Shown: positions 18,339 through 61,586, counted from the stretch's first letter. The stretch is DNA of 64,000 bases from Gammaproteobacteria bacterium (GCA_965222155.1 CBDCTH010000012.1:3424001-3488000), one strand, 5' to 3'. The notes: a model not told the origin generated them from the sequence alone. Translations and numbers: made by a program.

Positions 18339-18350
18339 TGATTTTGTACC

Positions 18351-35977: not shown

Positions 35978-36140
35978 CATCCAGGGTCAGACCAGCATAA
36001 AAAGTATAACTGTTTGATTTTAATTGATAATCCGTCTGTACATGACCTTTTCAAATCGTTAGAACACGCGTTTTATTACGAAAAAAGACATTGTAAGAAA
36101 TGTCACTTGCTTAACATGATATTTTCCGCCGTGAAAACCC
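35978..36140 (+). mobile_element. 245-bp element type B, right end missing
   Basis: CATCCAGGGTCAGACC start; matches 40128-40290. Confidence 0.88.
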
Positions 36141-36263
36141 AGTACTTGTTTGAACCAGAAAGGACATTTATACTCCACATATACACGCGTCAAACGCGAT
36201 CTGCAATGGCCACAAGCTCAGACTGTAAGCGAAAGATAGGAATCATGGTATGCTTGGACTATT

Positions 36264-36743
36264 ATGCCCTGGAAGACAAGAGGGACAAGCACCCGACCGA
36301 GAAATGTTGGAGAATTGGTGATGGATGAGAAAGATAGCGCAGTCAATCAGAAGGCAGAGAGCACAAATAGAGTCTTTGCAGAATTCTTTAATAAAATTAC
36401 TGATCGGTTTGTGCCAGCTACCTCCGAAGACGACAATGCCTCTTCATGGATAAGGTATGGTGTAACACCTCTGGGATTGTTTGTTTGGTGTGCCTACGCG
36501 TATTTATACGTGATTAATGATGAAATTGCCCGCGTAACAGAGAATCAAAATGATATGCTATTTAAAGAACTTCCACCTGACTGGGCAGGATCAACCTCAG
36601 TAGTTCTTTGGAGTATGGCCATCATGCTGTGGTTTTTGATAGGTAAGAGCTTTAAACGTGGGCAAGCACTGACTTTCTTTTTCTACGGTCTGATTTTCCC
36701 CACGTTAGCCTTGCAAATTCTGAGGTTCGCATTCCCATCGTAA
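36264..36743 (+). CDS. Hypothetical membrane protein (about 3 TM)
   Basis: ORF with hydrophobic segments; likely start near 36322 after GGAG. Confidence 0.6.
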   Translation: MPWKTRGTSTRPRNVGELVMDEKDSAVNQKAESTNRVFAEFFNKITDRFVPATSEDDNASSWIRYGVTPLGLFVWCAYAYLYVINDEIARVTENQNDMLFKELPPDWAGSTSVVLWSMAIMLWFLIGKSFKRGQALTFFFYGLIFPTLALQILRFAFPS

Positions 36744-36758
36744 TGAGGCTCCGGACAA

Positions 36759-37376
36759 ATGAATATATGGGCAACACAGGTATTAGTATTAATGATGGTC
36801 CTAGGTTGGACAGCACAAGTCGTCTCCCAAGGCAAACGCGATAATGCAATAGATACGGAATACAGTGCCCAACTCGCCAACGCCAAACCGAACGATGTTG
36901 ATCGTGCGACGCTTCCCAGAAAACTGCTTTGGGCGGGAATCTCATTGATCAATCCTGACGAGCGATACAAGCTTGTCCCTCTGTTCGGTTATTCCATTTC
37001 CAATTTGGATGAAAAATGGTCAGAAGAACATTTGGGCAATGTGCTGGCTAAGGTAGAGGCGGGCAGTGTCCGTCTTGCCATACTGAAACTAGATGCAGTT
37101 GCATCAGATTCTGGGAACACTTATAAAGGGCAGGGCATCCAAGTCAGCAGTAAAAAAAACAGTAATTTCCCAGTATATACTCAGGCACAGGTGTCCAATT
37201 TCCTGAAGGCTAATAGCATAGATATAAGTTATAAAGACATGATCGCATTCAGCCAACCCCTTAGCGATGTGGATTTCAAGGAAGAATTCATTGCCAATTC
37301 AACTCTCTGGGCCAACGATAGCAGTGTGCGTCTACCTGACAAGGATACGGCTTCTACATCATTAGTAAAAAAATAA
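36759..37376 (+). CDS. Hypothetical secreted protein
   Basis: Signal-peptide-like N-terminus; 15 bp after the previous ORF. Confidence 0.6.
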   Translation: MNIWATQVLVLMMVLGWTAQVVSQGKRDNAIDTEYSAQLANAKPNDVDRATLPRKLLWAGISLINPDERYKLVPLFGYSISNLDEKWSEEHLGNVLAKVEAGSVRLAILKLDAVASDSGNTYKGQGIQVSSKKNSNFPVYTQAQVSNFLKANSIDISYKDMIAFSQPLSDVDFKEEFIANSTLWANDSSVRLPDKDTASTSLVKK

Positions 37377-37723
37377 GAAGATACCTGTTAGGCGGATTCA
37401 AGTCATAAGTGCAACAAGTGGTTTGGTATTGTTCTGAACCAGCTCAGCGAATACCTCCCACGGGGTCTTAAACCCCAAACTTATACGCAAAATTAATGTC
37501 TTTTGCTATCAGATACAAAAGTATGCGTTTGCCCTGCTTTACCGGCCCGAATCCCGGAACGTTCTGCACCATGGCGTACTTTATGGTATTATCAAGTTTG
37601 CGCCGCGAACGCGTGTTTCTTCGTTCAAATGTCATTTATTAGTAGTGGGCAGGGAGCAGTTATGTGTAAGTGTGTTAGTCAAACCAGGATGACCTGTAAT
37701 TATAAGCAAAGGAGTTCAACACA

Positions 37724-38041
37724 ATGCAACTACTCATAGAATCTATGGCAATTATCATACCCTTGACCGCGATCATGGTGACGCTGTTTTCCTGGTTGCG
37801 TCAGGACATCAGGGCACAAGGTGATCGTCTCGATAGACGCATCGACGAACAGGGCAAGGAGATCAGGACGCAAGGTGATCGTCTTAATGAACGCGTCGAC
37901 GAACAGGGCAAGGATGTCAAGATTCTGATCGCTGACATATCCGCCCTGAAAGCCACGCTGGAAACTTTCTTCCGACTGCGCGTGGACCCGCCCCAGCCAC
38001 CGGACAATACTAACCCTGATCAGGTCAGCAAGGTCGCATGA
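37724..38041 (+). CDS. Small membrane-anchored coiled-coil protein with an 18-aa internal repeat
   Basis: AAGGAG RBS, N-terminal TM, IR.QGDRL..R.DEQGK twice (54-bp tandem repeat). Confidence 0.7.
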   Translation: MQLLIESMAIIIPLTAIMVTLFSWLRQDIRAQGDRLDRRIDEQGKEIRTQGDRLNERVDEQGKDVKILIADISALKATLETFFRLRVDPPQPPDNTNPDQVSKVA

Positions 38042-38135
38042 ACGACATTCCCGTCGTACAGCACCACTATAAGGTATCTAAGTCCGATGCCTCTGTCGCA
38101 CTCATACGTGTACTGAGTAGCGGTCTGGTTACGCC

Positions 38136-38198
38136 GCTGAACCGGAATCGGTGTTCACCTTCAACCGGAATCAGTGTTCATCTTCACCGGAATACGCA
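38136..38198. mobile_element. Solo IS21-family terminus
   Basis: Repeated ACCGGAATC.GTGTTCA boxes ending in CACCGGAATACGCA. Confidence 0.65.
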
Positions 38199-38225
38199 GT
38201 CCTGGCGGTAGAAGTCGCTCAGGCG

Positions 38226-38561
38226 CATCCAGGGTCAGACCAGCATAAAAAGTATAACTGTTTGATTTTAATTGATAATCCGTCTGTACATGACCTTTTC
38301 CAATCGTTAATGGCAGTGCATCCAGGGTCAGACCAGTATAAAAACTATAACTGTTTGATTTTAATTGATAATCCGTCTATACATGACCTTTTCCAATCGT
38401 TAGAACACGCGTTTTATTACGAAAAAAGACATTGTAAGAAATGTCACTTGCTTAACATGATATTTTCCGCCGTGAAAACCCTGTTCTAATCCTTAAAACG
38501 GCGCGCTATTGAGAATTTTATCCTCTATAATCATAGAGTTATATTGGTCCGACCCCCTCGT
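38226..38561 (+). mobile_element. Type B element: partial copy (38226-38309) followed by a full copy (38319-38561)
   Basis: Two CATCCAGGGTCAGACC starts; one TTATATTGGTCCGACCCCCTCGT end. Confidence 0.9.
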
Positions 38562-38761
38562 GTCGTCGTATCACTGCAGCCTGCAAGTTGTACACTGGGC
38601 GACTATATCAGGCACTCAAGAGTTTCCGCACCGGTGTGGTCATCGCACCTGCGGTCTGATGTGATTTAACATAGATAATTGCACGTTACGTGAGAATTTG
38701 CGAAAAATTTACGAATAATGCTATAATTGTGTCATCTAAATGCCCCAAAAGGAATAAGCCA

Positions 38762-40033
38762 ATGCTGTTACGTTTTGCTGTAGCAAATCACCTTTCCATT
38801 CGCGAGAGTCAGGAATTGTCCTTCGCTGCATCTTCGTTGAGAGACCGAGGCGATGGGCTAATTGACTGCAAAGCGGTGCAGAGCGGGTCAGTTTTGCCCG
38901 CGATAGTGATCTATGGCGCCAATGCATCAGGCAAATCCAATATCGTGAATGCAATAGCCGCCATGATGAAAATGGTATTGAGGTCGCATACCCAGGGTGA
39001 ACCCGGTGGTGGCGTACCACGCCATGCATTTAAGCTTGATTCAACTTGTTCGCAAACCCCGTCCAGATTCGAAATCGACTTCGTCATCGATGACGTAAGA
39101 TACCATTATGGATTTGAAACAACGGATGAAGTTTTTGCTGCGGAGTGGCTGTACACTTTTCCCAAATCACATCGCAGAAAGATGTTCGAGCGCGACAACA
39201 GCGAATTTGAATTTGGACGCTGGTTGAGAGGGCAGAACAATAATATTGCTGGATTGACTAGACCCAATAGCCTATTTTTATCAGCTGCCGCACAGAATGG
39301 TCATGAGCAGTTATCAAAAATATACGAATATTTTAGGTCAATTAAGTTTGCTAGTACGATTTCAATACCAGGTATAGAGGCTTCAGCGCGATTTGTAGGA
39401 GATGACCCAGATTCACGGGTGATCGATTTCTTAGCATCGATCAATACTGGGGTTATTGGTTACCAAAAAAGGACAGATGAAATTTCGGAAAAAGATCGAG
39501 CAATACGTCGAGAGCTAATCGCTATAGTTGAAAAGTTTTCAGATGGTCCTATAAAATTTGAACCCGACGAGGATGATAAGCATGTTGCTATTGAACTGGC
39601 TCATCGTGGTCGGCAGGGAGAGTCGGTTTATCTTGACTTAGATTCGGAAAGCGCTGGTACACGGCGGTTATTGATAGTGCTTGGCCTGGTATACCAAGCA
39701 TTGGATAAGGGTGTCCCGCTATGCGTAGACGAAGTGGATGCCAGTCTGCATACCCATGCCAGTGAAGCGATATTGAAGTTATTCTGCCTACCAGAGATAA
39801 ATCAAAGCGGTGCGCAGCTTATTGCTACAACTCACGATACTAACTTAATGAAATCGTCAGTATTGAGACGCGATCAACTTTGGTTTACTGAAAAGACCTC
39901 GGAGGGAGCTACGGAGCTTTATCCGCTAACGGATATTCGAACGCGCAAGGGCGACAATATTGAATTAGGGTATTTGCAAGGCCGATTTGGAGCGCTTCCA
40001 AGTGACGACATAACATTGCCAATTCGTGAGTAG
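38762..40033 (+). CDS. RloA-like / AAA_21 ATPase of a two-gene defence system
   Basis: MLLRFAVAN..SI, YGANASGKSN, ESAGTRR, VDEVDASLH, QLIATTHD, RRDQLWF, YL.GRFGALP. Confidence 0.88.
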   Translation: MLLRFAVANHLSIRESQELSFAASSLRDRGDGLIDCKAVQSGSVLPAIVIYGANASGKSNIVNAIAAMMKMVLRSHTQGEPGGGVPRHAFKLDSTCSQTPSRFEIDFVIDDVRYHYGFETTDEVFAAEWLYTFPKSHRRKMFERDNSEFEFGRWLRGQNNNIAGLTRPNSLFLSAAAQNGHEQLSKIYEYFRSIKFASTISIPGIEASARFVGDDPDSRVIDFLASINTGVIGYQKRTDEISEKDRAIRRELIAIVEKFSDGPIKFEPDEDDKHVAIELAHRGRQGESVYLDLDSESAGTRRLLIVLGLVYQALDKGVPLCVDEVDASLHTHASEAILKLFCLPEINQSGAQLIATTHDTNLMKSSVLRRDQLWFTEKTSEGATELYPLTDIRTRKGDNIELGYLQGRFGALPSDDITLPIRE

Positions 40034-40039
40034 AATTGA

Positions 40040-40120
40040 ATGGCGAGGCTCAAGATACCGCCAATCCGACGGCGAAAATCGCGTAAAGAACCGAAACAAC
40101 ATTTTGTCCTGTTTTGCGAT
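40040..40120 (+). pseudogene. RloB-family protein, only the first ~27 codons remain
   Basis: MARLKIPPIRRRKSRKEPKQHFVLFC, cut just before the expected CEG motif by a type B element. Confidence 0.7.
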
Positions 40121-40127
40121 CATCCAG

Positions 40128-40372
40128 CATCCAGGGTCAGACCAGCATAAAAAGTATAACTGTTTGATTTTAATTGATAATCCGTCTGTACATGACCTTT
40201 TCCAATCGTTAGAACACGCGTTTTATTACGAAAAAAGACATTGTAAGAAATGTCACTTGCTTAACATGATATTTTCCGTCGTGAAAACCCTGTTCTAATC
40301 CTTAAAACAGCGCGCTATTGAGAATTTTATCCTCTATAATCATAGAGTTATATTGGTCCGACCCACTCGTAT
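40128..40372 (+). mobile_element. 245-bp element type B, full copy
   Basis: Inverted ends GGGTCAGACCA/TGGTCCGACCC; IHF-like sites at 40157-40169 and 40338-40350. Confidence 0.92.
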
Positions 40373-40380
40373 GTACTCAT

Positions 40381-40693
40381 CACGCGGCGTCTCCAGCTCA
40401 AACTGGCTCTCCCCGGTGGTCAGTGTCTTGCTGCTATAGCCGTTGCGGCGGTTGGCATTCTCCGATGGCGCATGCCGGGCGTAGCCCAGGTGGTCCGCCA
40501 GCTCAGCATTCAGCGCCGCTTCCACGGTGACCTTGGTCAGCATCTGGCTGAACTCGTTCAGGTCTTGCTCGGTTTTCAGGCCCTTCGCCACCTCACGGGC
40601 AAAGGCTTGCAGGTCTTTCTTGTTCATAGTACCTATCCTCACCCATAGTGATGGTTAATGATAGGCGGTTTACACAGTTTTTGTTACAGTCCC
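40381..40693 (-). mobile_element. IS256-family left end and transposase N-terminus, truncated
   Basis: GGGACTGTAACAAAAAACTGTGTAA end; EAALNAEL..HLGY, RNGYSSKT, TPRD, then cut by the type B element. Confidence 0.88.
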
Positions 40694-40766
40694 AGATAAA
40701 GTAGCGCGGCTGCTCGACGACTTATCTTTATTCGTTGTATTCCGCATTTTTTGAAACCACTGGTAA

Positions 40767-41684
40767 TCAATCCTGAATATCAAACGTGGTTGATAAGGCG
40801 CATGACATCGGTCTGCGCTTTTGGTCCATCAGGATTCTTAAGCTTTCGAAATTTGGAGAGTCATCTATCAACCCCTCCTTACATTCCAACATAAGGTCGG
40901 TGACAAAGTTCTCTAATCGCCAGCCACAGGTAAACTCTTCTCCAGACAACTTGCTTGGCACTCCATTTTTAATATCTTTGTAGGATGGGACGTAACCCGA
41001 GGTTTTTGAGTGAAGTGCATCATCTAGCTGTTTTTTTGGAAGCACTCGGCAACCGATTATGTTTTCGCCTATATTTGGAACACTTGTCATTGGCATCCTG
41101 ACTGCATGGGGAATATCTACGGGGTTATAGAATAGGTAATACATCTTTGTTTCCCAGCGGCGCTCAAAATGCCCCATAGTTTCTTGTTGTTCACTCTGTT
41201 TTTTCAATGCTTGATATTTTGACGTCTCTTCGAATACCAATAACTTATCTGCTATCAAATCTGAATGTTCTTCATCCGTTACTAGCAATCTACCTAGGCC
41301 GAATCGTCTGACGTACTTGCTCTCTTCAGTATATTTCAAGCTGTTTGCATAAAGCTTCTTCGACTGTAGCAGCGCTATTTTACTTTTTACCACCTTACCT
41401 CGATGACGAAATACCATCATTAAACCAATATCTGCTACCTCCCAAGTTCCAAAGTGCCTTCCTCCTCCAATGAAGTGGGCATCAATTCGTACGATCCAAT
41501 TTGAAGTTAATGTTACTGGTGTTTGGTTCCTCGAAAAGTAAGAAATAAAATTCATATCCAGAGACTCTTCATGAATTGCAGGAAACCTGGATAAATCGAC
41601 CGCTACTTGCCTATTACAACTAGCGAAGTGGGATCTCAAAAAATCACTTACGTCGTGTGGTATATCAATATGAGTAATGCTCAT
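40767..41684 (-). CDS. Hypothetical protein with a PD-(D/E)XK-like motif; putative nuclease
   Basis: HEESLD, EVADIG...ALLQSKKL; low GC; defence-island context. Confidence 0.6.
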   Translation of the reverse strand: MSITHIDIPHDVSDFLRSHFASCNRQVAVDLSRFPAIHEESLDMNFISYFSRNQTPVTLTSNWIVRIDAHFIGGGRHFGTWEVADIGLMMVFRHRGKVVKSKIALLQSKKLYANSLKYTEESKYVRRFGLGRLLVTDEEHSDLIADKLLVFEETSKYQALKKQSEQQETMGHFERRWETKMYYLFYNPVDIPHAVRMPMTSVPNIGENIIGCRVLPKKQLDDALHSKTSGYVPSYKDIKNGVPSKLSGEEFTCGWRLENFVTDLMLECKEGLIDDSPNFESLRILMDQKRRPMSCALSTTFDIQD

Positions 41685-42199
41685 TTCTGGTGTATGGGCT
41701 GAATAGTGAGGTGGTGCATCCGATGTTGTATAACTGTCTCTTTCAAAAGATAACAAACAACTTAAGAGGAGTACACCACTACCCTGATTTGACGCACACT
41801 CTCATATAGTCCCAGGGGAGAGTGAAGATGGCAAGACAAATATACATTTGTCATTTTCGGGTCGACTGGAAAGTATAATCTGGCTTCAATCAGAGACGTA
41901 TTTCGAAGCTGCATTATGACCACTCATGAGTGTGAAGCAGTGTGCAATATTGACCTCTATTTGTCTTATTGCCAATATAGGTTACAATTTGCTAATCAGA
42001 TTATGATGCGTATTATACCTCAATCACTAATAATTGACACTTGAGTGCCCGCATCACGGACAGGGTTATGAGTGAAGCCAGCAGATGCGGGACGAACAGT
42101 TCGAGTTTGAAATCAGCATTAAAACGTCACAGAAAATGGCTGTGCAGTCAGTACAATCGGGTGTCTCATAACCGTGCCGCAGTATAAATTTATGGGCGA

Positions 42200-43783
42200 T
42201 TGATGAGTTATAGCTACTCAAGTTTGGACAAAAAGAACAGGAAATGGTTCATAAATGACGATTCGAGGGGCACTCTTGCAAGCGTTTCTCTTGTTATAGG
42301 AAAGATCCGCGGATTACATCCATTCAAGATTTGCTTTGAGTATCCCATATCTGCAATTGCAGGGGTCAACGGATCAGGTAAATCAACAATTTTAGCGATT
42401 GTGTCGTGTGCATTTCACAATCATCCTGGGGGATTTACGCCATCCCTTAGGAAGCAATCATATTATACGTTCAGGGATTTCTTTATCCAATCTGCAGACG
42501 AAACTCCCATTGAAGGTGTGGAGATCAGGTTCGGTATACGCAATAACAAATGGCGTGGCGGAAAGTCAGGTCTCAGATATCAAGTCAGAAGGAAGCGCAG
42601 TGGTGGGAGGTGGAACGATTACCACACTCGGGTAAAGCGAAACGTTATATATTTTGGTATTCAAAGGGTTGTCCCGCACTTTGAGCGGAGTGTTCATAAA
42701 TCGTACCATTCACATTTCAAACCAGGTAGCCTGCCTTTAGAAACTCGAAAGAAAATAGCCGATATTACTGGTCGTATTATCGGGAAAACTTATACTTATT
42801 TCGATAACTACGAGCATTCCAAATATTCACTTCCGCGAGTGGAGACTGCGGGAATAAACTACTCTGGTTTCAATATGGGATCTGGAGAGAGTGCTGTTTT
42901 TGAGATTTTCACGGCAATTTTTCTGGCTGGACCTGGAACGCTCGTTGTCGTTGATGAAATTGAACTTGGCCTTCACGAAGAAGCTCAACACCGACTTATA
43001 GATGAGTTCAAGAAACTCTGTCTTGACTTAAAATGTCAAATTATTTGCTCGACACACTCACATGCTATTTTGAGCCGACTCCCCCCTGAAGGCCGTTTCT
43101 ATATTGAGGAGGTAAATTCCAAAACATCGATCAACAAGGGGATTTCTGCTGATTTTGCATGTGGAAAAATGGGCCGACCACACGCTCAGGAGCTCGATAT
43201 CTTTGTTGAAGATGCTGTTGCCAAGTCAATCCTTCAAAGCTTGCTGCCATTGGACCTCAGAAAGCGCTCTCGAATAACGCCAATTGGTTCCCACGGTAGT
43301 GTATTGCGCCAACTCACTTCCCGTTATTTAGACGGCAAAGGAAATTGTCTGTGTATATTGGATGGTGATCAGGAAAATGCCGCGGAAGCTTCTAAGAAGC
43401 TCGTTATTAAATACTCTGAAGCAAGCACAGACGCGAAAAAATCTGAGGTATCTGATTGGGCCGAGAAGAGGATATCTTTCCTACCTGGGAGCACATGGCC
43501 AGAAAAATGGTTGTTGGAAAGTGCAATCAACTGGCTTCAAAGCGGTTCTCCTGATGTTCCAACAGACATAGTCTGCCCTTGGGGACTGACCTCAAAACAT
43601 GAATTATTGGGGTTTCTTGAGAAAGCGAACAACTCTGATAAACACAACGAGTTTTTTGAACTTGCCAAAGTAGTCGACCTGGATAAAGAGCGTGTTCGAG
43701 ATGACATAATAAAGTTTGTGCTGAAGATCGAAGAGCCGAAAACACAGGTGCTTATCGATAAGGTTAAGGAGATGCTGCCTTAG
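42200..43783 (+). CDS. ABC-type ATPase fused to a TOPRIM domain (OLD-like nuclease)
   Basis: GVNGSGKST, NMGSGE signature, VVVDEIE, CSTHS, IFVED and ILDGD. Confidence 0.85.
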   Translation: MMSYSYSSLDKKNRKWFINDDSRGTLASVSLVIGKIRGLHPFKICFEYPISAIAGVNGSGKSTILAIVSCAFHNHPGGFTPSLRKQSYYTFRDFFIQSADETPIEGVEIRFGIRNNKWRGGKSGLRYQVRRKRSGGRWNDYHTRVKRNVIYFGIQRVVPHFERSVHKSYHSHFKPGSLPLETRKKIADITGRIIGKTYTYFDNYEHSKYSLPRVETAGINYSGFNMGSGESAVFEIFTAIFLAGPGTLVVVDEIELGLHEEAQHRLIDEFKKLCLDLKCQIICSTHSHAILSRLPPEGRFYIEEVNSKTSINKGISADFACGKMGRPHAQELDIFVEDAVAKSILQSLLPLDLRKRSRITPIGSHGSVLRQLTSRYLDGKGNCLCILDGDQENAAEASKKLVIKYSEASTDAKKSEVSDWAEKRISFLPGSTWPEKWLLESAINWLQSGSPDVPTDIVCPWGLTSKHELLGFLEKANNSDKHNEFFELAKVVDLDKERVRDDIIKFVLKIEEPKTQVLIDKVKEMLP

Positions 43784-44428
43784 TGGTTGACTTATAAGTA
43801 AGTTTTTTTAAGGCGTTTCGGCGAGCTGTTTATGGTAAAAAAAGGGGACAGACTGGAAGAAAAGGAGACAGGTTTAAACCTGCTCCCTTTCCCTCCTTCC
43901 TGCAGAGTAAAAATAAATCTGCCTAGGTGCATCCGCCAAAAGTTGTTCAACGAAAGGCCGGTTGTCCGACTTTCTGGATGACGCGGCTGGTTCCTTTAAT
44001 GCTCTGATATGTGTTCATATTTCAGGCTTTGCAACGTCGATTACGTAAATTGAGATCTTGCGCTTCTCGTCTTCTGAGAGCGTGTCGAGCAAACGATTTT
44101 CGAGATCGGCAGCACTTTTTGGCCGGCGTCTCTCCCCGGGTGTTGATCGACAATGTTCCGTGTCTCCGAACCAGAATACGAGATAAATTCCATAACTATC
44201 TGCGCCCGGGTCCCGAGTGTATTTGGCAATCAACTGCGTTTTTATCGCACTCCAAAGATCGCGATGACATGCGTATTTCACGGCAAAGCTGCCTCCCATT
44301 ACATCCGAAAGCTGCCACCTGTTACACGGCAAAGCTGCCACCCCTGACGGGGTAAAAATCCGGAGTGTTTGACGCGGATAACCACCGGTATCCTGTATCC
44401 TTTTTTCTGTTGAAAGGAGGAGACGCAA

Positions 44429-45970: not shown

Positions 45971-45989
45971 CCGATAACAGGAGACTGCT

Positions 45990-49751: not shown

Positions 49752-49866
49752 GCAGTATAATTCTGAATATAGGTTGTTGACGCCGCACAATCAGGAACAG
49801 CGACGTTGTTCGAGGCTCTTAATTAGCACCCTCGGATTTTTATTCCTCAGGAAATTCAGAAATTCA

Positions 49867-50024
49867 GGGGACACAATACTTAATTATCCTGCCGTTGTTT
49901 TGGCCTTGGTTTTTTCTTTTTCAGCGACCGGCCCAACACCCCCTCAATCCTGCCAATAAATCCCTCATCCCCCAAGGGTCTGCCCGTACGCGCATGGGTA
50001 TTCCAGAATTAAGTATTGTGTCCC
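49867..50024 (-). mobile_element. Internally deleted RAYT (Y1 HUH transposase) element
   Basis: Inverted ends GGGACACAATACTTAATT / AATTAAGTATTGTGTCCC; minus strand encodes HARTGRPLGDEGFIGRIEGVLGRSLKKKKPRPK*, resembling RAYT C-termini. Confidence 0.7.
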
Positions 50025-50027
50025 TAG

Positions 50028-51668: not shown

Positions 51669-51672
51669 CTAG

Positions 51673-52789: not shown

Positions 52790-52968
52790 AGGCGGCTGCA
52801 AGTCCCCGGCTGCAGTGGATGAGTGATTCTGATTGTAGGACAGCCCTTGAGACAGAGTCAATGCGGAGGATGTCCTGATGGCAATGCACCAGTCGTTTAA
52901 TTGAGAAGCAGCCGGCAAAGTGCCACCGACTAAGTTTGAAAAATGTACTATAATTAGTTTGACAGGTC

Positions 52969-54846
52969 ATGCAAAGCGGCATGACTCAAACTAACGGGGC
53001 TCCAGAATTCCTGGGGCGGTTCAGAAAGCCGCTATATTTTAATACTACCAGCACAATAGGCGGAAAACTGCATTTCATGGCCTCGCTGAAATTGATAAAA
53101 TACATGATTAGTGCTTTAACCACCCCGGTAAGTGTCTGGCCATCCTTGGCGTGCTTGCGCCTTGTCAGTAAAACGTCATTTTTCCACACCGCTTTTACAA
53201 TGTTCTGGCTAGGATGTCTGTTTTTACTAACATCATGCACGTTTGCATACAAGGAGGAAGGGGCGATTGATTATCGTAAAACCGAGGTCTCAACTACAGA
53301 TCTGAGTAAATTCACTGTTAAGACCGATAGTATAGAAACAAATATACAGGGAGAACCAATTCGTATTGCCAAGTTGCAACGTAAGAATTTACCGCAAGAT
53401 AACAGGGAAGTAACATTTTCAGAAAATGACAACATATGCATACGGCTTACATCAGCTTATATAAAAGACTATTCAGAAGGCCCCCTAAGCTGGGTTAATG
53501 ATGCAGTTGGGGGGCAAATCAGGTCCAAGGGAGAAATTGCCGTTGTAGTTAACGCTTTTGCAGTCAAAGATTCTGTTGCTTTTGACTTCTCCGACAAAGG
53601 AGTTAATAAAGGAAAGGTGGTTTTTTTCTCTGATGATATCGTTGCAGGCCAGTTCATGAATTTTAATAATATGCCAATTTACGGCCCCTCCTCTGAAGGA
53701 AAGAATGGCATAGGTCTTGAAATCTGGATTATGGAGCTGGATATTTCCGACGTTCTAACAGGAAATTTGCTCCGGGACATAGCCTCATATGGAACAATAC
53801 CTCTTCCCTTTTCGTCTGTTGGGAACGTAATTCTGGAATCTATGGGTAAAAGCCTGTTAAGTTCCACTAATACTCACGATACAAATTTTCTTTACAGAGT
53901 ACTGCTAGAGCCCAAGAAAGCAGCCATGCTTCCAAACGCCCCCCTAGAAGTCGGCCATTACGTATTCATTCGAGTTCAGGAAGATATTGGAGACATTCTG
54001 AAAAATATCAAGAACCTTGATTTTAAGAAAATTATCAAAGGGGGTAGAATTGATGATATAAACTGGTCAGAACTGGTGCTTGATGAAAACAGTGGACGAT
54101 TATATAAAAAGGTTAAAATGAACGGAGTAAATGCTCAGTGTGATTGTGATGATAATGGTTATGATTATATTGAGTACACAGATCGAAATTATTTGGTTAT
54201 AAGTGTTGATAAAGATACTTCTGGACGTGATTTATCTGTAGATAATAAGTTGTATGAAGCTTTTCTCGGCTCTGTGAAAGAATCGGCAAATACCAATCAA
54301 TTCGTTGCGACAATCATAATGGAATTAAAAATGCGTGAGATTATGACTTTGTTCGACCAGTACTTTGAAGCAGTGAGCAAAGTTAATTCCGCAGAGGATG
54401 TCGTGAGAAAAGAAGATGATGCGATCAAGAAAGCAGCGGCAGAGGCTACGGCTAGGAAAGCTAAGGCTGATGCCACCTCCAAGAAAACGGATATGATTAA
54501 TGGCTTTACATATTTTTGGGATGATTACATCAAACCTTCATTGGAAAAGCATTATTACAAGTCGGCGTCACTCAACAGTAACGATCTCACAGAACGGGAT
54601 CTAAGCCAAGCTGCTAGGCAATTTATGGCTAAAATCAGCCAAGGAGTTGGTAAAGGAATAAACGATATTGACATTTGTGTGTCTGACCTGTTCACGTGGT
54701 TTTCAAGTGGAGTCAAAGAAACAAATCGGGAGGTCGCTAAAGATAGAATAAACGAAATAAGGCAGAAGATAATTTCTTTGATCAACGGTAATGGGTGCCC
54801 GACTTCTACACCGCCGACTACAACCCCATCCGAGCAACAAACGTGA
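52969..54846 (+). CDS. Hypothetical low-GC putative lipoprotein
   Basis: 625-codon ORF; LLTSC lipobox-like motif suggests a later start. Confidence 0.65.
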   Translation: MQSGMTQTNGAPEFLGRFRKPLYFNTTSTIGGKLHFMASLKLIKYMISALTTPVSVWPSLACLRLVSKTSFFHTAFTMFWLGCLFLLTSCTFAYKEEGAIDYRKTEVSTTDLSKFTVKTDSIETNIQGEPIRIAKLQRKNLPQDNREVTFSENDNICIRLTSAYIKDYSEGPLSWVNDAVGGQIRSKGEIAVVVNAFAVKDSVAFDFSDKGVNKGKVVFFSDDIVAGQFMNFNNMPIYGPSSEGKNGIGLEIWIMELDISDVLTGNLLRDIASYGTIPLPFSSVGNVILESMGKSLLSSTNTHDTNFLYRVLLEPKKAAMLPNAPLEVGHYVFIRVQEDIGDILKNIKNLDFKKIIKGGRIDDINWSELVLDENSGRLYKKVKMNGVNAQCDCDDNGYDYIEYTDRNYLVISVDKDTSGRDLSVDNKLYEAFLGSVKESANTNQFVATIIMELKMREIMTLFDQYFEAVSKVNSAEDVVRKEDDAIKKAAAEATARKAKADATSKKTDMINGFTYFWDDYIKPSLEKHYYKSASLNSNDLTERDLSQAARQFMAKISQGVGKGINDIDICVSDLFTWFSSGVKETNREVAKDRINEIRQKIISLINGNGCPTSTPPTTTPSEQQT

Positions 54847-54894
54847 AGCGCTTTAGCGATGCCCTATTAGGTATTTCCTACCCCATTCATACTG

Positions 54895-55053
54895 GCACAG
54901 GCCGATTTGCAACGCTATTTCCAGGTCTCGCCTCCCTCAGTCCACCGCATGTTGACCCAATTGGAGGACAAGGGACTCATTCGAAAACAGCTTGGTGTCG
55001 CACGTAGCCTCTCATTGGTACTGCCTGTCCATCAACTGCCACAACTTGACTGA
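54895..55053 (+). pseudogene. LexA/MarR-like winged-HTH C-terminal remnant
   Basis: AQADLQRYFQVSPPSVHRMLTQLEDKGLIRKQLGVARSL*; no start. Confidence 0.6.
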
Positions 55054-55170
55054 ATTTGACTCGTCAATCGATCAGAATTAAATTGAAACGGTACTAGTCT
55101 TGCCGGGTATTGATGACGTTACATACCCTTCTGACGGAGTTGAAACGGTAGCGAGTAGACTGGAGGTTTC

Positions 55171-56010
55171 TTGATGCCCCAACTACCCCATTGGCTGGAA
55201 CAGTTACGCCGCACCGAAATCATACAGCGCGTAAAGAACGATCCTCGTTCCGGGCCAGAACAATACCTTGGAGTCAGTAGCTCGGATGCGACGCACGAAG
55301 TTGCCGGGTGGGGTCAGGCGGACTTCGACAAACCTTGGCGTCATCTGTCGCCTGATGACCGTGTCCTTCTTTACGCTTACTTCTTTCAGCTTGGGCACTT
55401 GGAAGAACTTGTCGAGGCGTTTGGTATGCTCTTTGCCAAAACCCGTCCTGCGGAACAACCCATTGTCGTCGATTTAGGTTGTGGACCGTTCACAGGCGGA
55501 CTTGCTTTTGCCAGCGCACTTGGCTCCGAACAGCAATTTGATTATATCGGCGTGGACCGATCTGAGGCTATGCGCAGACTAGGCGAACGGCTCGCAATCG
55601 CCGCCGAACATCACAATACAGCACTTCAAATTGGTCGCCAATGGGCATCCGACATCTCCTCGATTTCCTGGCATCAACCACTGACTTGGCATCCGGTATT
55701 TGTCATTGTGTCGTACCTTCTGGCTAGCCCGACGGTGGACGTGGTGGAGCTTATCAAGGAGTTGGAACAACTGCTCTCAAAATTTGGCCGAGGGTCAGTC
55801 ACAGTTTTGTACACAAATTCGAAACGAGACGAAGCCAATAAAAACTTTCCGGATTTTTGCAACGCATTGCGTGATGCAGATTTCAAAACACTTAAAGATG
55901 ACATTGGAACAATTGCGGTGGAAAGAATGCACGGTACTCAGGGCCGCGACTTACGATATGCTCTGTTCCATCGTCCTGCACAAAATACTCTTTCTCTTGG
56001 AGATAACTGA
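55171..56010 (+). CDS. Class I SAM-dependent methyltransferase
   Basis: VVDLGCGP motif I, YIGVDRS motif II; GGAGG RBS. Confidence 0.85.
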   Translation: MMPQLPHWLEQLRRTEIIQRVKNDPRSGPEQYLGVSSSDATHEVAGWGQADFDKPWRHLSPDDRVLLYAYFFQLGHLEELVEAFGMLFAKTRPAEQPIVVDLGCGPFTGGLAFASALGSEQQFDYIGVDRSEAMRRLGERLAIAAEHHNTALQIGRQWASDISSISWHQPLTWHPVFVIVSYLLASPTVDVVELIKELEQLLSKFGRGSVTVLYTNSKRDEANKNFPDFCNALRDADFKTLKDDIGTIAVERMHGTQGRDLRYALFHRPAQNTLSLGDN

Positions 56011-56011
56011 A

Positions 56012-57100
56012 GTGCGGCTACCAACTTGGGATGAAATCGTCAGCGAGGAGGACCAGCGCGATGTGTTGGAATATCCGCTTGATCAGCACCTATTCGTTGT
56101 GGGGCCACCTGGTTCCGGCAAGACAGTCCTTGCCTTGCACAGGGCGCGGATGATGGTGGATACAGGGATGCCAGTTAAACTTGTCACATACAATCGCATG
56201 CTCAGGCGTTTGCTGGAGCTGTTGGGGGGCGGAAGTATAGATGTTCAGACAATGCATCAATTTGCATGGTACGACTACAAGGACCGGATGGGTGAAGAGC
56301 CACCACAGTATGTGGAATATAATAATGATTGGGAAACCATGCTTGCGCGCGTCAAAGACAACCATAAGTGCCACAACCAATTTCACATGATTGTGGATGA
56401 GGGACAAGACCTTCACCAGGAATTTTTCAGGTATGCTTCGTATGTCTCGAACGCCATCACCGTATTTGCAGATGACGATCAAGCACTCAGTACGGATCGC
56501 TCAACGCTTGAGGACATCAAAGCCGCAGCCCACTTGAATGATCCGATTATTCTCAAAAAAAATCATCGGAATAGTCCGGAGATTGCTACGGTGGTGGAAC
56601 ATTTCCATAGTGGTCGTCTCCCCGCCGCATCCATCGTCCGCTCCTCAACGGGAGAACTTCCTCGCCTGGTCAAAACAAAAAACCTTGAATCTACAGCCAC
56701 GTTGGTGTCGAATTGGTATAATACCCGAGGCGGTAGTATCGGCGTTATTTTCAATCGAAACGAGACCGGTAATGAGTTGCACACCATGCTCCGCAAGAAA
56801 CTGCCCGACAAGCGCGTTGACATGTACACAAATGATCAAAAAAACGAGGGTAGTATCGACATGCTATCTTCGGGTGTGACCATACTCAACAAAGAATCCG
56901 TGAAAGGCCAGGAATTTGCCACAGTGTTTATTTTGGAACTGGAATCCTTCATCCCATGCAATACCCCTGTAAATAAACCCGCAATGTACATGATGTGTGC
57001 CCGTGCTTGTGATAATCTTTTTCTTATTTACGGCCCCGATTCACTTTCGATACAGGCAGAGAGAGCATTGCCGGGGGCTGATGCTTTGGAGCGGTCATGA
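56012..57100 (+). CDS. Compact UvrD/Rep-like SF1 helicase
   Basis: GPPGSGKT, IVDEGQD, FADDDQ, NHRN, VKGQEF, YMMCARA; GTG start 1 bp after the MTase stop with GGAG RBS. Confidence 0.85.
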   Translation: MRLPTWDEIVSEEDQRDVLEYPLDQHLFVVGPPGSGKTVLALHRARMMVDTGMPVKLVTYNRMLRRLLELLGGGSIDVQTMHQFAWYDYKDRMGEEPPQYVEYNNDWETMLARVKDNHKCHNQFHMIVDEGQDLHQEFFRYASYVSNAITVFADDDQALSTDRSTLEDIKAAAHLNDPIILKKNHRNSPEIATVVEHFHSGRLPAASIVRSSTGELPRLVKTKNLESTATLVSNWYNTRGGSIGVIFNRNETGNELHTMLRKKLPDKRVDMYTNDQKNEGSIDMLSSGVTILNKESVKGQEFATVFILELESFIPCNTPVNKPAMYMMCARACDNLFLIYGPDSLSIQAERALPGADALERS

Positions 57101-59277
57101 ATCCTCCTGAACCCCAGATGGCAATGCGCTTTTCCGAGGTTCGTGAACCTGAATCCCGCTGGTTGGGACTGGCCACTGATAATCGGCGTCTTTTTGATGC
57201 GTTGCAGGATGGTTGGCTACGACCCCAGTCTTCGGACGGGCAGATGGTAGGAATCGGAACGTACGTTCGGGATGGGAGCCCGGTCGATGCGGGGCATCCA
57301 ATACACGTCCAGGTAAGACTAGATCCCGCGAAGTTGCCTAATCTTGATATTGACGTCTTGCGCAACAAAAGTTGGCGGACATCTTGTATTGGCGCGCTTG
57401 AGCCAACAGATCAGGCGTTGTACTGGCCGGGTGCGCTACCGACTTTCGCCATCTCGAAACTATTAGTATCGACCGAAGAAGAGCGTGCGCGTTTCACCGG
57501 CATGGCCAGGTATGTCTCGAATCTGATACTACCCAAAGAGTTGGTCAGAGTCGGTGCTAAACCCGGGGACTGTTTCGATGTGGAGGTTTCCCCACCCAAG
57601 GCAACGGTGGGTATTGGCATTCCAAGCGATATGGATGCAATCCACGGCGCTATTGCTATGGCTGTTTGGGGAGTTCCGCGAATTGATCCCTGGCTGGATA
57701 TTCTCACCACCAGCCTTGACCCTGAACAATCGGGGCTGGAAGATCTGGCCGCGAAAATGGACGCCTCATGGTGGCGGTTTCCACCCTGGATGCGGCTTCA
57801 GGGTGAGGTCAATTCAGACAGCCTGCACGATCGCCTCTGGTTGGCTGCCGTGGAAGTGTTTCGAAGTCAAGTAAGTGGCGAGCGTATCGATCCCCGTGAA
57901 CTCTCAACACGAATACACGCTAGGGCGTCACAAAGCTGTCCTGCAAAAGGTCGGGACGAGCAGGCGAGAGAGTGGTTGGAGACCACAAACGGTATTCTAC
58001 GCGCCGAGTCGGTCATTCAACTCCGGGATTGGCGGAGTTGCCCTGTTGGAATAGCCATTCAATTGGTGTTGGCTCGTCCAGAACCAACGAACTTCAAGAC
58101 ATGGTTTAAGGATATGCCGCAACTCCCCCCGGCAATTGCCTGGTCTGCAGCAGTTCTATGCGGTCTTTTGCATGGATACAGGCGTCTCGACTGCCAATTC
58201 CGTGGGACGGTGCTGCAACGCGAACTTCTATCAATTCAGGCATTGCGCCTGTCTGTCGCGGGGAAACGCGATCTTTGTTGGCCATCTGTCACCGCCAGGA
58301 AACCCGAATGGAGAAGGGCTGCCGGCCGCTTCGTGTTGGCTTGGGACGGTAATGATTTTTCTACAAAGCCGGAGAATGCGCGCGGTCAATGGTTTGGCGC
58401 GGATTTCAAGAGAACAAAAGTTCAGGAAGAGGCCCATAAACTCGCAACAAATTTGAATTGGCCCTGTCTTTCCCAGCAGATCATTCTGACAGACGTACTA
58501 CTACCCTATTCTGGTCCAGGCACTATGCGTTTACCCACCAATAAGGATACGCTAATCGAGGTTGAAGGGACTGTACGGTTCCAGTTGCCGGAAAATTTGG
58601 AAATCGAGAAAAAACTTAATGTTGATCGGTTCCGCCACTTCATCGCCACGGAGGCAGGACCACTGTCGAATCCGCCATCCTCCTCGCTAGCAGCCGAGAC
58701 GCAACCCCTGCAATCAGCTATTCCTGGCTTGATATATATCCGAGATTATCTGAGCGAGGGCGAAGAAGATGAACTTGTTAAACTCATTGATAGTCACCCA
58801 TGGGACACTCAACTGAAACGACGCGTTCAGCACTATGGGTGGCGTTATGCTTACAAAGCCCGTCAAGTTGACCCAGCCATGCGTCTCGGCCCCCTGCCGG
58901 ATTGGGCTGACAAACTCGCCGGACGCCTTGTTTCAGAAGGGCTTGTACCGCAACTTCCCGATCAGGTTATTGTCAATGAGTATATTAGAGAACAGGGCAT
59001 CAGTGCCCATGTTGATAGTAACAGCTTTGCTGATCATATCGTCACGATCAGTCTATTGGAATCGTGGGGGATGGTGTTTCGCAAAAAAGGGTCAAAAAAC
59101 AAAGTCGAACAGCTACTTGAGCGACGCAGTGCGGCAATCATGAGTGGCGAAGCCCGGTATGACTGGAAACATGGAATACCAATGCGGAAGAGCGAGCGTA
59201 ACAAGTCCGGCGAGGGACGCAGGAACCGAGAGCGTCGCATTTCACTTACCTTTCGCAAGGTGAAATACTCCGTGTAG
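57097..59277 (+). CDS. Unknown ~540-aa domain fused to an AlkB-type 2OG-Fe(II) dioxygenase
   Basis: RRVQHYG, IVNEY, HVD...H iron ligands, RISLTFR; ATGA overlap with the helicase. Confidence 0.85.
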   Translation: MNPPEPQMAMRFSEVREPESRWLGLATDNRRLFDALQDGWLRPQSSDGQMVGIGTYVRDGSPVDAGHPIHVQVRLDPAKLPNLDIDVLRNKSWRTSCIGALEPTDQALYWPGALPTFAISKLLVSTEEERARFTGMARYVSNLILPKELVRVGAKPGDCFDVEVSPPKATVGIGIPSDMDAIHGAIAMAVWGVPRIDPWLDILTTSLDPEQSGLEDLAAKMDASWWRFPPWMRLQGEVNSDSLHDRLWLAAVEVFRSQVSGERIDPRELSTRIHARASQSCPAKGRDEQAREWLETTNGILRAESVIQLRDWRSCPVGIAIQLVLARPEPTNFKTWFKDMPQLPPAIAWSAAVLCGLLHGYRRLDCQFRGTVLQRELLSIQALRLSVAGKRDLCWPSVTARKPEWRRAAGRFVLAWDGNDFSTKPENARGQWFGADFKRTKVQEEAHKLATNLNWPCLSQQIILTDVLLPYSGPGTMRLPTNKDTLIEVEGTVRFQLPENLEIEKKLNVDRFRHFIATEAGPLSNPPSSSLAAETQPLQSAIPGLIYIRDYLSEGEEDELVKLIDSHPWDTQLKRRVQHYGWRYAYKARQVDPAMRLGPLPDWADKLAGRLVSEGLVPQLPDQVIVNEYIREQGISAHVDSNSFADHIVTISLLESWGMVFRKKGSKNKVEQLLERRSAAIMSGEARYDWKHGIPMRKSERNKSGEGRRNRERRISLTFRKVKYSV

Positions 59278-59351
59278 TGCCGGCTCGAAGATAATGTATG
59301 GTCCGCCCCGAGTTTGAAAGACAAATAACTGGCGAGGCAAGTCAGGTCGCG

Positions 59352-59596
59352 CATCCAGGGTCAGACCAGTATAAAAACTATAACTGTTTGATTTTAATTG
59401 ATAATCCGTCTGTACATGACCTTTTCCAATCGTTAGAACACGCGTTTTATTACGAAAAAAGACATTGTAAGAAATGTCACTTGCTTAACATGATATTTTC
59501 CGCCGTGAAAACCCTGTTCTAATCCTTAAAATAGCGCGCTATTGAGAATTTTATCCTCTATAATCATAGAGTTATATTGGTCCGACCCACTCGTAT
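59352..59596 (+). mobile_element. 245-bp element type B, full copy
   Basis: Matches 40128-40372. Confidence 0.92.
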
Positions 59597-59693
59597 CCCC
59601 TCGTATGTACCTCTAAGGGGGGTGGCTTTGTAAAACGCTTGTTGAGTACACCTGCTCTCTAACTCAAATTTTGTTGATTTTAGTTTTATTAAA

Positions 59694-59996
59694 GGGAACC
59701 TCTAATAATTGACGATTTCCGTTACTATCGCTATCTATGCGGGCAAGCCGGGTTCTTTTACATATAAATGTATTCGGCCAGTGGCGAAATGACCCCGTGC
59801 TCGCCTTCATCGACCCCTTAATCGGGCCGTTTTATTGCCTTCGGGTGTCGGTTTGACACCCGCCGGGCGTTGTCTCCGTCAAGCAGGCGCGCTGACCCCT
59901 TCCAGGTAACACAGTCGTCGCATGTTATACACCAGGTTCAGCATCCCAATGGCCAACTCACTGCGCGCCAGCCCGATACAGCGTATCAGAGATCCG
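59694..59996 (-). mobile_element. IS5-family right end and transposase C-terminus
   Basis: GGGAACCTCTAATAA end; LIRCIGLARSELAIGMLNLVYNMRRL on the minus strand; cut by a type B element. Confidence 0.7.
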
Positions 59997-60206
59997 CATC
60001 CAGGGTCAGACCAGTATAAAAAGTATAACTGTTTGATTTTAATTGATAATCCGTCTGTACATGACCTTATCCAATCGTTAGAACACGCGTTTTATTACAA
60101 AAAAAGACATTGTAAGAAATGTCACTTGCTTAACATGATATTTTCCGCCGTGAAAACCCTGTTCTAATCCTTATCATAGGGTTATAATGGTCCGACTCCC
60201 TCGTAT
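59997..60206 (+). mobile_element. Type B element with a 35-bp internal deletion
   Basis: Both ends present; 210 bp. Confidence 0.9.
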
Positions 60207-60356
60207 GTACCTCTAAGGGGGGTGGCTTTGTAAAACGCTTGTTGAATACACCTGCTCTCTAACTCAAATTTTGTTGATTTTAGTTTTATTAAAATTTCTA
60301 TAAAGTTGTGCTATTTTTTTGAAAGAAAAAGATATACAGTTTTCTTTTAAAAATAT

Positions 60357-60980
60357 ATGGGAAAACACACGCACAGCACTGATAGCAATATCCTCCGGCG
60401 GATTCATTCCCGTAAGCGGGGTTGGGTCTTTACGCCTGACAGTTTCACAGACCTCGGTACCCGGCAGGCAATTGATCTCGCGCTGATGGGGCATCGGAAG
60501 ACTGGCCTCATCCGAAAACTGGCCCGGGGGTTGTATGATTACCCGAAAATCGATCCTCAGCTTGGTCCTTTACAGCCATCTACGGATGACATTGCAAAAG
60601 CCTTGGCAGGTCGTGATGCTGCCCGTTTACAACCCTCCGGGGCTTATGCGGCTAATCTCCTTGGACTTTCTACACAAGTGCCAATGAAAGTCGTGTATTT
60701 GACGGATGGCCGGGCGCGGACAGTAAAGGTTGGCAAGCGAGAGATCGTCCTGAAACGAACCACCCCCCGCAATATGGCTACCGCCGGGAGCAGCAGCGGG
60801 TCGGTGATCCAGGCCCTGCGCCACTTGGGCCGGAAAAACGTCGACCAACAAGTCATTGCACAGCTTGATCGCCGTCTTGATGACGATGTTCGCAAGCAAC
60901 TGATGAAAGATATTTGGTATGCCCCGGCTTGGATCGCCGATATCATTCGCATACTGGCTGCCCAGGAAAGTACAGTATGA
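60357..60980 (+). CDS. AbiEi-like antitoxin (DUF6088)
   Basis: [34 protein letters not shown]...VYLTDG. Confidence 0.85.
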
Positions 60981-61341
60981 GAGAATTTATTGCAATGCCG
61001 AAAGAACGTCGCCGGCTGGCCTGTACGGAGGCCGGCGCACAACTGAACCTGTCTGAGATTGCTGTCGAAAAGGACTTCTGGGTTTGCTGGACCCTGCGCA
61101 AATTGTTCGAGCTACCCAAATGGGGTGAACACCTGACGTTCAAGGGTGGTACATCATTGTCCAAGTGTTGGAAGCTAATTGAACGTTTTTCCGAAGATAT
61201 CGATATCGTCATCGAACGGGGCGCCTTGGGTTTTAGTGGAGAGAATGCCGTGGAACAGGCACCCAGCAAGACACAGACAGAAAAGCGCCTCAAGGCACTG
61301 AAAGTAGCTTGCCAGCAATGTATCAGCGACAGGAGGATTCA
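60977..61341 (+). pseudogene. AbiEii nucleotidyltransferase toxin, truncated by a type B element
   Basis: [24 protein letters not shown]; only ~120 codons remain. Confidence 0.88.
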
Positions 61342-61586
61342 CATCCAGGGTCAGACCAGCATAAAAAGTATAACTGTTTGATTTTAATTGATAATCCGTC
61401 TGTACATGACCTTTTCCAATCGTTAGAACACGCGTTTTATTACGAAAAAAGACACTGTAAGAAATGTCACTTGCTTAACATGATATTTTCCGCCGTGAAA
61501 ACCCTGTTCTAATCCTTAAAACAGCGCGCTATTGAGAATTTTATCCTCTATAATCATAGAGTTATATTGGTCCGACCCCCTCGTAT
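61342..61586 (+). mobile_element. 245-bp element type B, full copy
   Basis: Matches 40128-40372. Confidence 0.92.

Follow-up and report, generated by a model that had tools for sequence, protein, structure and literature searches.

Repetitive extragenic palindromes (REPs) are hairpin-forming palindromes of 20-40 bp tagged by GTAG or CGTC (PMC3733652), and REP-associated tyrosine transposases (RAYTs) are as a rule single-copy genes that lie between copies of the very repeats whose spread is attributed to them (Bertels et al. 2017, PMC5581495), as in the REPIN-RAYT systems of Bertels and Rainey 2011 (PMC3116915, PMC3337134). RAYT-like genes with long terminal inverted repeats in place of hairpin REPs were named TIRYTs, and the units they form TIRtrons, by Di Nocera et al. 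2013 (PMC3733652); the available text of that paper describes a motif, GGGGWSAS, shared by many TIRYT repeats, derived repeat families of moderate abundance, found as single copies, dimers or clusters, and the lack of a clear relation between presence of the gene and abundance of the repeat. Most TIRYTs fall in subclass 2.1, according to the accessible part of Quentin et al. 2018 (PMC6006769). Here, we describe a window of 64,000 nt from a gammaproteobacterial genome (positions 3424001-3488000 of contig C12 of assembly G000, to which the contig labels C1-C12 belong), in which two homologous short elements, type A (281 nt) and type B (~245 nt), sit at breakpoints of an island of defence genes, several copies abutting gene fragments. 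Judged by their sequence, both are very likely gene-less derivatives of an element of the TIRYT/RAYT kind.

The sequence-only reading of this window had taken the elements for a strong candidate of an undescribed system. That claim does not stand, as RAYT-like genes with long terminal inverted repeats and derived repeat families were named in 2013 and, as far as the available text of the two sources goes (PMC3733652, PMC6006769), the elements fit the TIRYT/TIRtron class, a kind already described. As in TIRtrons, a Y1/HUH RAYT-like gene lies between long inverted repeats (here, in relatives of the window's genome) with a G-rich tip, GGGGTCRG or GGGTCRG, and the derived repeat families are single, dimeric or clustered and also occur in genomes without the gene. 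The fit to GGGGWSAS extends to 7 of 8 positions in type A (GGGGTCGG) and in type B (AGGGTCAG), the tip reaching 7 of 8 when R = G; the consensus tip of metagenome relatives, GGGTCGGACC, is preceded by a weak G/C, and the flanks of two other Y1 genes in the window's genome fit at 8 of 8. Compared with TIRtrons as portrayed in those sources, the conserved end is long here (~110 nt) and includes a box resembling a binding site for integration host factor (IHF), and the available text of PMC3733652 and PMC6006769 makes no mention of gene-less two-end derivatives at the breakpoints of defence islands, of co-oriented arrays around toxin-antitoxin (TA) cassettes, or of the tandem repetition of flanks that we call stutter below.

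The REPIN-RAYT systems, again within the limits of the available text, show both likenesses and differences. Shared are the single-copy Y1 gene flanked by repeats, a non-autonomous unit made of two inverted ends, and the absence of target duplication. In contrast to REPs, the ends described here are ~110 nt long, show no significant fold and lack a GTAG or CGTC tag, and where a REPIN doubles one REP, type B joins two different ends (one from the 3' side of the gene, one from the 5' side), as an internal deletion would. The IS200/IS605 insertion sequences (ISs) likewise use the Y1 HUH enzyme family without target duplication, cutting at a fixed distance outside the recognized end structure; they differ in having subterminal hairpins, no inverted terminal repeats, many copies and a transposase of ~150 aa, compared to a single-copy gene of 261 aa and inverted ends. 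Gene-less derivatives of IS200/IS605 exist as well, and are called PATEs. Co-oriented repeats that border unrelated segments with no flanking duplications are also a feature of IS26-type arrays and integron cassette arrays, which may serve as an analogy for the elements here; the enzyme families differ, and neither IS6-type ends nor an integron integrase was found in our case.

A Y1 transposase gene between the same ends

Type A, type B and a third family of 285-390 nt in the same genome, family C, each consist of two end modules in inverted orientation. A module is ~110 nt long, begins with GGGTCRGACC and is imperfectly inverted relative to its partner; the tip is followed by an IHF-like box, YAA-N4-TTGAT, ~20-30 nt further in, by CTTA(A/G)A..TTTT at ~+70-90 and by TGTAAG at ~+105, the last being the GT.AGAAAT motif spotted earlier in the middle of A and B. 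Y1_Tnp genes occur in 15 of the 23 genomes of the genus, and when their 26 loci were scanned for the tip motif, inverted GGGTCRGACC ends ~945 nt apart bracketed the gene in three (loci L060, L062 and L063, from genomes G032, G006 and G013). The 265-aa open-frame class consists of just these three genes, one in each of the genomes, and at the two bracketed loci that were read, full end modules of the family C type stand on either side of a 261-aa gene (gene length, 261-265 aa). In L063, the gene occupies 1078-1863 on the minus strand. Further Y1 genes of the genus have different repeats on their two sides, which likewise start GGGGTCAG... or GGGGAC.... The 261-aa protein matches Pfam Y1_Tnp with 33.7 bits (cut-off 23), its translation shows HIH and Y-containing motifs, and no solved structure related to it was found at E 0.01.

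The association of ends and gene extends beyond the genus. Using the 261-aa protein, we scanned metagenomes and examined the best 80 of 569 relatives (49-62% identity), counting upstream tips only at loci with at least 200 nt of upstream flank. The exact 10-mer of the tip lay upstream of the start codon in 47 of 68 loci, at a distance of 93-218 nt (mostly 106-127 nt), and its reverse complement ~25 nt past the end of the gene in 37 of the 61 loci with downstream flank; both were present in 29 of 54. Conservation across these loci sets in precisely with GGGTC, and the boxes further inside (AAC..TTGAT, CTTAAA..TTTT and TGTAAG) are as in A and B. With end profiles made from metagenome loci only, the right end of B scored 51.4 bits against the 5'-side profile and its left end 28.8 bits against the 3'-side profile, while the ends of A scored 35.0 (right) and 21.4 bits (left); each match spans ~85-117 nt, and the homology between the ends of A and B and those that flank the gene thus covers the entire end and not the tip alone. 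Given these scores, type B is best described as a 3'-side end fused to a 5'-side end after loss of the complete gene. The earlier proposal that the elements are the ends of a trans-acting HUH/RAYT-type system agrees with this, in that a Y1 gene lies between such ends in 3 of 3 cases among congeners and in the majority of metagenome loci, and the autonomous copy it called for, with a transposase between the same ends, is present in three congeners and not in the window's genome.

We propose that the full element would be a Y1 (HUH) tyrosine transposase gene of ~261 aa between two imperfectly inverted ~110-nt modules, from which B would have arisen by loss of the gene and joining of what had been its 3'-side end (B left) to its 5'-side end (B right). 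Copies may have spread by single-strand cut-and-rejoin, a route that would leave no target duplication, with the enzyme acting in trans. Its source may have been a cognate gene that has since disappeared, an earlier host of the island or, possibly, either of the genome's two other Y1 genes. The broken-gene mosaic would then reflect insertions into island genes that were already decaying, followed by rearrangements started at termini and by recombination between co-oriented copies.

Several observations weigh against this proposal. The window's genome holds no intact cognate 261-aa gene, and its best matches to the cognate are two other Y1 genes at 26-28% identity with different flanking repeats. 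Coding relics in A and B scored 31 and 35 against a null of ~33 and are not significant. The best NCBIfam model for the 261-aa protein is the REP-associated tyrosine transposase equivalog, REP_Tyr_transpos (NF047646), and its score of 69.5 bits does not reach the cut-off of 80. Number of termini and presence of the gene do not track each other among congeners, with 6, 25 and 3 termini in gene-bearing genomes and 31, 18, 12, 12, 12, 6 and 0 in gene-less ones. Single-strand folding is no better than in shuffled sequences (z -1.4 for whole B, +1.2 to -1.3 for single modules), unlike in classical REPs. Family C on C12 points both ways (6 vs 4), and the strict co-orientation of B is thus not a general property of the family. 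Finally, the role of TIRYTs and RAYTs is debated, and activity on their own repeats in cells has not been demonstrated according to the available text of PMC5581495 and PMC3733652.

Relics of the 261-aa gene are present in family C, which retains residues 1-37 at 86% identity, residues 102-143 at 57% and the last 65 at 37-44%, with a score of 115 that was reached in 0 of 200 shuffles (mean 33.6). The genome's other RAYT/TIRYT-like genes lie at C12:1985271-1986125 (285 aa) and C12:2623897-2624562 (222 aa), each bracketed by its own repeat family, that of the former starting GGGGTCAGGTCGC with 35-44 copies and that of the latter GGGGACACAATAC with 32 copies. Fragments like the 222-aa gene also occur in the island, at 49943-49999 of the window (residues 184-202) and, beyond the window, at C12:3502126-3502221 (residues 1-32), ~300 nt 3' of a B copy. 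A candidate for an autonomous element at C10:25176-28169 was rejected, as it contains no transposase gene but a hydrolase, a disrupted amidohydrolase and vapBC.

Elsewhere in the genome, end modules of ~100 nt start with an outer hexamer or heptamer that is specific to the family. It is followed by GGGTCRGACC, by a (R)YATAAC or CCTAAC box, single or doubled, with TTGATT or TTTGTT behind it, by an AT-rich segment and by CTTA(A/G)A..TTTT. The tip motif GGGTCNGACC, counted in either orientation (GGGTCNGACC or GGTCNGACCC), has 156 sites in the genome compared to ~35 expected at equal base use, 87 of which group into two linked clusters of end modules, and it is enriched in 9 of 10 congeners (31, 18, 12, 12, 12, 6, 25, 3, 6 and 0 sites vs 0-2 for the reversed control). 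Neither a GTAG nor a CGTC tag was found at the tips; Rfam families at gathering score had no match in the window, a plasmid collection searched with B gave no match, and a full-text literature search for the tip 10-mers returned no bacterial repeats among the matches listed.

Copies, junctions and two versions of the island

The copies and the features that adjoin them in the window are as follows (positions counted from its first nucleotide).

4861..4935, + strand: type A left-end fragment of 75 nt, 94.7% identical over 75 nt, directly 3' of the stop codon of a LigB-family gene
7767..7793, + strand: stutter, a duplicated flank with the first 12 nt of the A left end, read directly, just 5' of a full A copy
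7812..8092, + strand: type A full copy, 281 nt; end profiles give 35 bits for the right end and 21 bits for the left
8156..8637, - strand: two small genes, one matching Unstab_antitox, between the two full A copies
8701..8981, + strand: type A full copy, 281 nt, 99.6-100% identical to the copy at 7812
10226..10248, no strand: solo palindrome GGGTCAGACCC bordered on either side by the outer flank of type A, the left and right termini meeting with no interior between them
35978..36146, + strand: type B ending after ~170 nt; left flank a sulfotransferase-like fragment (35820-35978) 86% identical to 24808-24966
38226..38309, + strand: type B left-end fragment of 85 nt, from the repeat search
38319..38566, + strand: type B full copy, right terminus facing the promoter region of the AAA_21 ATPase operon; left end 29 bits (3'-side profile), right end 51 bits (5'-side profile)
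38690..40033, + strand: intact AAA_21 ATPase gene between two B copies, with relatives at 85% identity
40052..40126, + strand: the initial 25 codons of rloB, truncated at the left terminus of the 40128 copy (compared with the intact gene in locus L019)
40128..40375, + strand: type B full copy, from the repeat search and flank alignment
40340..40642, - strand: N-terminal fragment of an IS256-family transposase (profile positions 14-83 of 379) abutting the right end of the 40128 copy
59352..59599, + strand: type B full copy; behind it stand a 10-nt repetition of its right tip and 96 nt of flank that the 59997 copy also has
59997..60217, + strand: type B with an internal deletion of ~35 nt, from the repeat search and copy alignment
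60914..61341, + strand: fragment of an AbiEii gene (profile positions 4-63 of 238), truncated at the left terminus of the 61342 copy; a DUF6088 gene lies upstream of it at 60357-60980
61342..61589, + strand: type B full copy, by shared base differences the counterpart of the copy at 97046 of contig C4

The seven type B and three type A copies named in the sequence-only reading are all at their reported places. A repeat search placed the B copies at starts 35977/8, 38225/6, 38318/9, 40127/8, 59351/2, 59996/7 and 61341/2, four of which are full-length (38319, 40128, 59352 and 61342), and the A copies as two full ones (7812 and 8701) and the 75-nt left piece (4861). Taken together, 10 of 10 face the + strand, in line with the common orientation that had been stated, which corresponds to a two-sided p of ~0.002 provided that the copies are independent; on C12 as a whole, B has nine copies, two of them past the window, and all nine are co-oriented, while the only other B-type copies in the genome are six in a second version of the island on contig C4. 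Replication-strand bias was considered as the cause of this co-orientation and rejected, given that family C faces both ways (6 to 4) and GC skew is weak. Copies of B are 94-100% identical to each other, and the homology of A and B that had been noticed by eye is confirmed by direct blastn (74-75% identity over 69 nt) and by an alignment of 12 ends, three congener ends among them, across ~115 nt with 20 invariant columns.

Flank alignment of all copies places the left border of type B at CATCCA|GGGTC... and the right border at ...GACCCMCTCGTAT|. Two solo palindromes, GGGTCNGACCC, at 10226-10248 of the window and at C12:361521, carry outer flanks of type A or family C on both sides and look like two tips joined without interior. 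The proposed IHF-like sites inside both ends hold for one end of each type and fall one base short at the opposite end: exact matches to the IHF consensus, WATCAANNNNTTR, are present at the left end in 7 of 7 B copies and at the right end in 2 of 2 full A copies, and the window has 15 matches compared to 2.4 expected. The claim that flanking genes are unrelated and broken is upheld for rloB and IS256 at 40128, AbiEii at 61342 and the sulfotransferase-like fragment at 35978; the left flank at 59352 is intergenic and shows no broken gene.

None of the six full-length B copies on C12 shows matching bases on its two sides, and the reported absence of target duplication is therefore confirmed. Target duplications are preserved in this genome when they are made, as an ordinary miniature inverted-repeat transposable element (MITE) of ~240 nt at C1:5868-6108, with inverted ends of ~18 nt, retains its TTAA duplication and is absent at C12:21262-21265 within an otherwise 99% identical stretch. 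Ordinary MITEs of a DDE transposon, for example miniature elements derived from Tn3, whose target duplications had been lost, would share with A and B the terminal inverted repeats and the IHF-like boxes adjoining the tips, and the tip itself presumably resembles the outer part of Tn3-family repeats. Yet no family here shows a target duplication while a real MITE keeps its own, each family has conserved bases outside the GGGTC tip, the genome lacks a Tn3-family transposase (PF01526), and the gene found between such ends is a Y1 gene and not a DDE gene; we consider this origin extremely unlikely, in agreement with the earlier view that these are not simple MITE insertions.

Numerous termini show a tandem repetition of the flank, which in many cases also takes in the first 8-27 nt of the element. 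Counting a 7-mer just outside the tip that recurs within the preceding 30 nt, stutter was present at 14 of 55 termini of metagenome loci (random positions, 5 of 1100; positions 45 nt further out, 0 of 53) and at 15 of 67 termini of the window's genome (13 of 1340 and 1 of 67), i.e., at 22-25% of termini compared to at most 1% of random positions. It also occurs at the repeats of one other Y1 gene (GGGGTCAGGTC type, the family of the 285-aa gene). As read from these sequences, the enzyme would nick 6-8 nt outside GGGTC, and nicking, short extension and resealing would duplicate the stretch. A nick at this position would explain both why each family has its own conserved outer hexamer or heptamer and why flank and tip are so frequently duplicated together. 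In a further locus of the genome (L001, on C10), at 3100-3400 and 6150-6220, ~45 nt from the 3' end of an alpha/beta-hydrolase gene recur behind each of two successive right termini, with another related piece in front of the first element.

The second version of the island, C4:72072-117418, corresponds to C12:3436187-3509455 (the window from 12187 onwards) at 98-99.9% identity, and the two versions differ by blocks bordered by B termini. A stretch of 21.3 kb, from 40018 to 61342 of the window, is missing at the corresponding place of C4, where the B copy at 97046 matches the 61342 copy by base differences along its whole length; its left junction lies within the last ATPase codons, is shifted leftwards by 110 nt relative to the 40128 junction and has 6-7 additional bases. 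Given this junction and these base differences, the C4 arrangement is not the product of a crossover between the 40128 and 61342 copies. At the 35978 copy, the left flanks of the two versions differ, with divergence starting at the terminus.

Whether such junctions could be assembly mis-joins at a repeat was examined in contigs of public sequencing runs, using as evidence only those window parts with contig cover. Grounds for suspicion exist: the assembly has 12 contigs and a contamination estimate of 7.3%, the second version lies on C4 while C12 ends inside the repeated region, and short run contigs cannot bridge copies. Against this, the repeat is only 245 nt within a 3.5-Mb contig, and contigs of runs X2 and X3 reproduce the C4-type junction (depths 80.8 and 40), with the qualification that these runs are possibly the source sample of the assembly and for that reason not independent support. 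In X2, depth is ~190 over 36.1-40.0 kb and ~84 over 40.7-43.3 kb of the window, and the contig graph branches at 40018, the point of divergence between versions. From these junction contigs and depths, both island versions exist in the X2/X3 material, and we regard mis-joins as a very improbable source of the junctions.

Some further observations concern these runs and the assembly. Contigs of run X4, from another study, depart at 38224-38226, the left B tip, at a depth below 13 and in short pieces, and are a hint only; run X5 holds only a diverged relative. Depths of the X2 contigs are unequal, and with C12 ending inside the region of the second version, the two versions may represent separate loci of a single genome or a sample with two strains. 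Parts of C12 and C10 are present a second time in the small contigs C1, C7 and C8 as well.

An explanation without any enzyme at the ends, in which A and B would be inert and the entire mosaic the work of ordinary homologous recombination among co-oriented copies, has several points in its favor: the copies are direct repeats of 245 nt with 94-100% identity, three B copies carry the same 96-nt right flank, which points to segmental copying, and the genome has no cognate transposase gene. Recombination between such direct repeats can account for some of the mosaic, to which ordinary exchange between copies probably contributes. As an account of the whole, this explanation is nonetheless unlikely in our judgment, as the displaced C4 junction with its 61342-like copy is not a crossover product, the left flanks at 35978 diverge between versions exactly at the terminus, and the enrichment of stutter at termini, in unrelated organisms also, would not be expected from crossovers inside a repeat. 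The idea that the ends belong to a system that deletes or shuffles adjacent DNA to build the island is thereby retained in one half, rearrangements that begin or end at termini, while an enzyme as the builder finds no intact cognate gene in this genome. A role of the ends in island building is supported by the terminus-precise differences between versions, and the mechanism outlined above would be one way to produce them.

Defence and toxin-antitoxin cassettes around the termini

In the window's genome and in congeners, termini are often co-oriented, sometimes cut to 25-30 nt, and placed between small cassettes that encode HigBA, ParDE, PIN, HipA, Fic, AbiE, DUF4143 ATPases or a coiled-coil protein. 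The most extended case is in congener G002, where an array of 9 kb holds an unbroken run of 18 termini on one strand. In an unrelated gammaproteobacterial metagenome-assembled genome (MAG), an AAA_21-RloB operon, whose ATPase is 80% identical to that of the window, follows three co-oriented termini and has a degenerate terminus behind it. The recurrence of termini around TA and anti-phage genes raises the question of whether they help to assemble defence islands.

Arrays of this kind invite the idea of a cassette system, integron-like or otherwise, whose tyrosine or serine recombinase would use the ends as recombination sites, the alternative that the sequence-only reading had left alongside the HUH enzyme. 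Co-oriented termini separate small TA and defence cassettes both in congeners and in the unrelated MAG, boxes near the ends resemble the consensus RYYYAAC / GTTRRRY, and a resolvase gene is present at 62647-63363 of the window. No integron integrase was found, however (best TIGR02249 score 84 bits vs a cut-off of 265), no recombinase gene adjoins any of the five termini arrays examined, the single-strand fold is not significant, and the ends are tied to a Y1 gene in 3 of 3 congener and most metagenome cases. Recombination sites of this kind are thus most unlikely. A dif/Xer-like reading of the ends was also set aside, their arms being judged by eye not to be symmetric.

Returning to the ends of a Y1 transposase, a bolder version of their role would have the termini act as start and stop sites for the HUH enzyme, with DNA between co-oriented termini lifted out as a single-stranded circle and set beside another terminus. 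We think this rather unlikely, and mention it here since it would account for the co-oriented single-terminus arrays of congeners (such as the 18-terminus, 9-kb run), for the same AAA_21-RloB operon between termini in the unrelated MAG, and for the terminus-exact rearrangements and the flank stutter. If true, TA pairs, AbiE, AAA_21-RloB and DUF4143 ATPases would be mobile cassettes of an integron-like system driven by a Y1 transposase. Whatever the mechanism, the locus offers natural test material, as the type B family is young (94-100% identical) and confined to one island, two island versions differ at the tips of elements, and the stutter signature predicts the position at which the enzyme would cut.

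Termini elsewhere in the genus have further neighbors. In the G002 locus L012 (G002:C1:1138000-1157999), a 3' fragment of a large RTX-repeat gene (10574-11123 vs 6227-6492) is copied 4 kb downstream into the termini array, and this copy begins right after a terminus tip. At tRNA-Phe (C12:435632-435707) of the window's genome, the 3' end of the tRNA gene and 1155 nt downstream of it, comprising an end module and higBA, are repeated 10.3 kb on (435695-436848 / 445987-447139), a pattern that looks like an island integrated at the tRNA.

Within the window, a small open reading frame (ORF) with internal repeats and no Pfam family lies at 37724-38041, just 5' of a B copy (a tandem 54-nt repeat covers 37803-37910); ORFs with coiled-coil or KID repeats likewise adjoin termini in G002 (L012:15718-16038 and 17984-18418) and in G018 (L047:3048-3686). 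A polysaccharide block with a flippase, a sugar transferase and GT2 is duplicated, at 21734-24782 and 28751-31896 (78-92% identity), and sulfotransferase fragments and an IS lie between its two copies.

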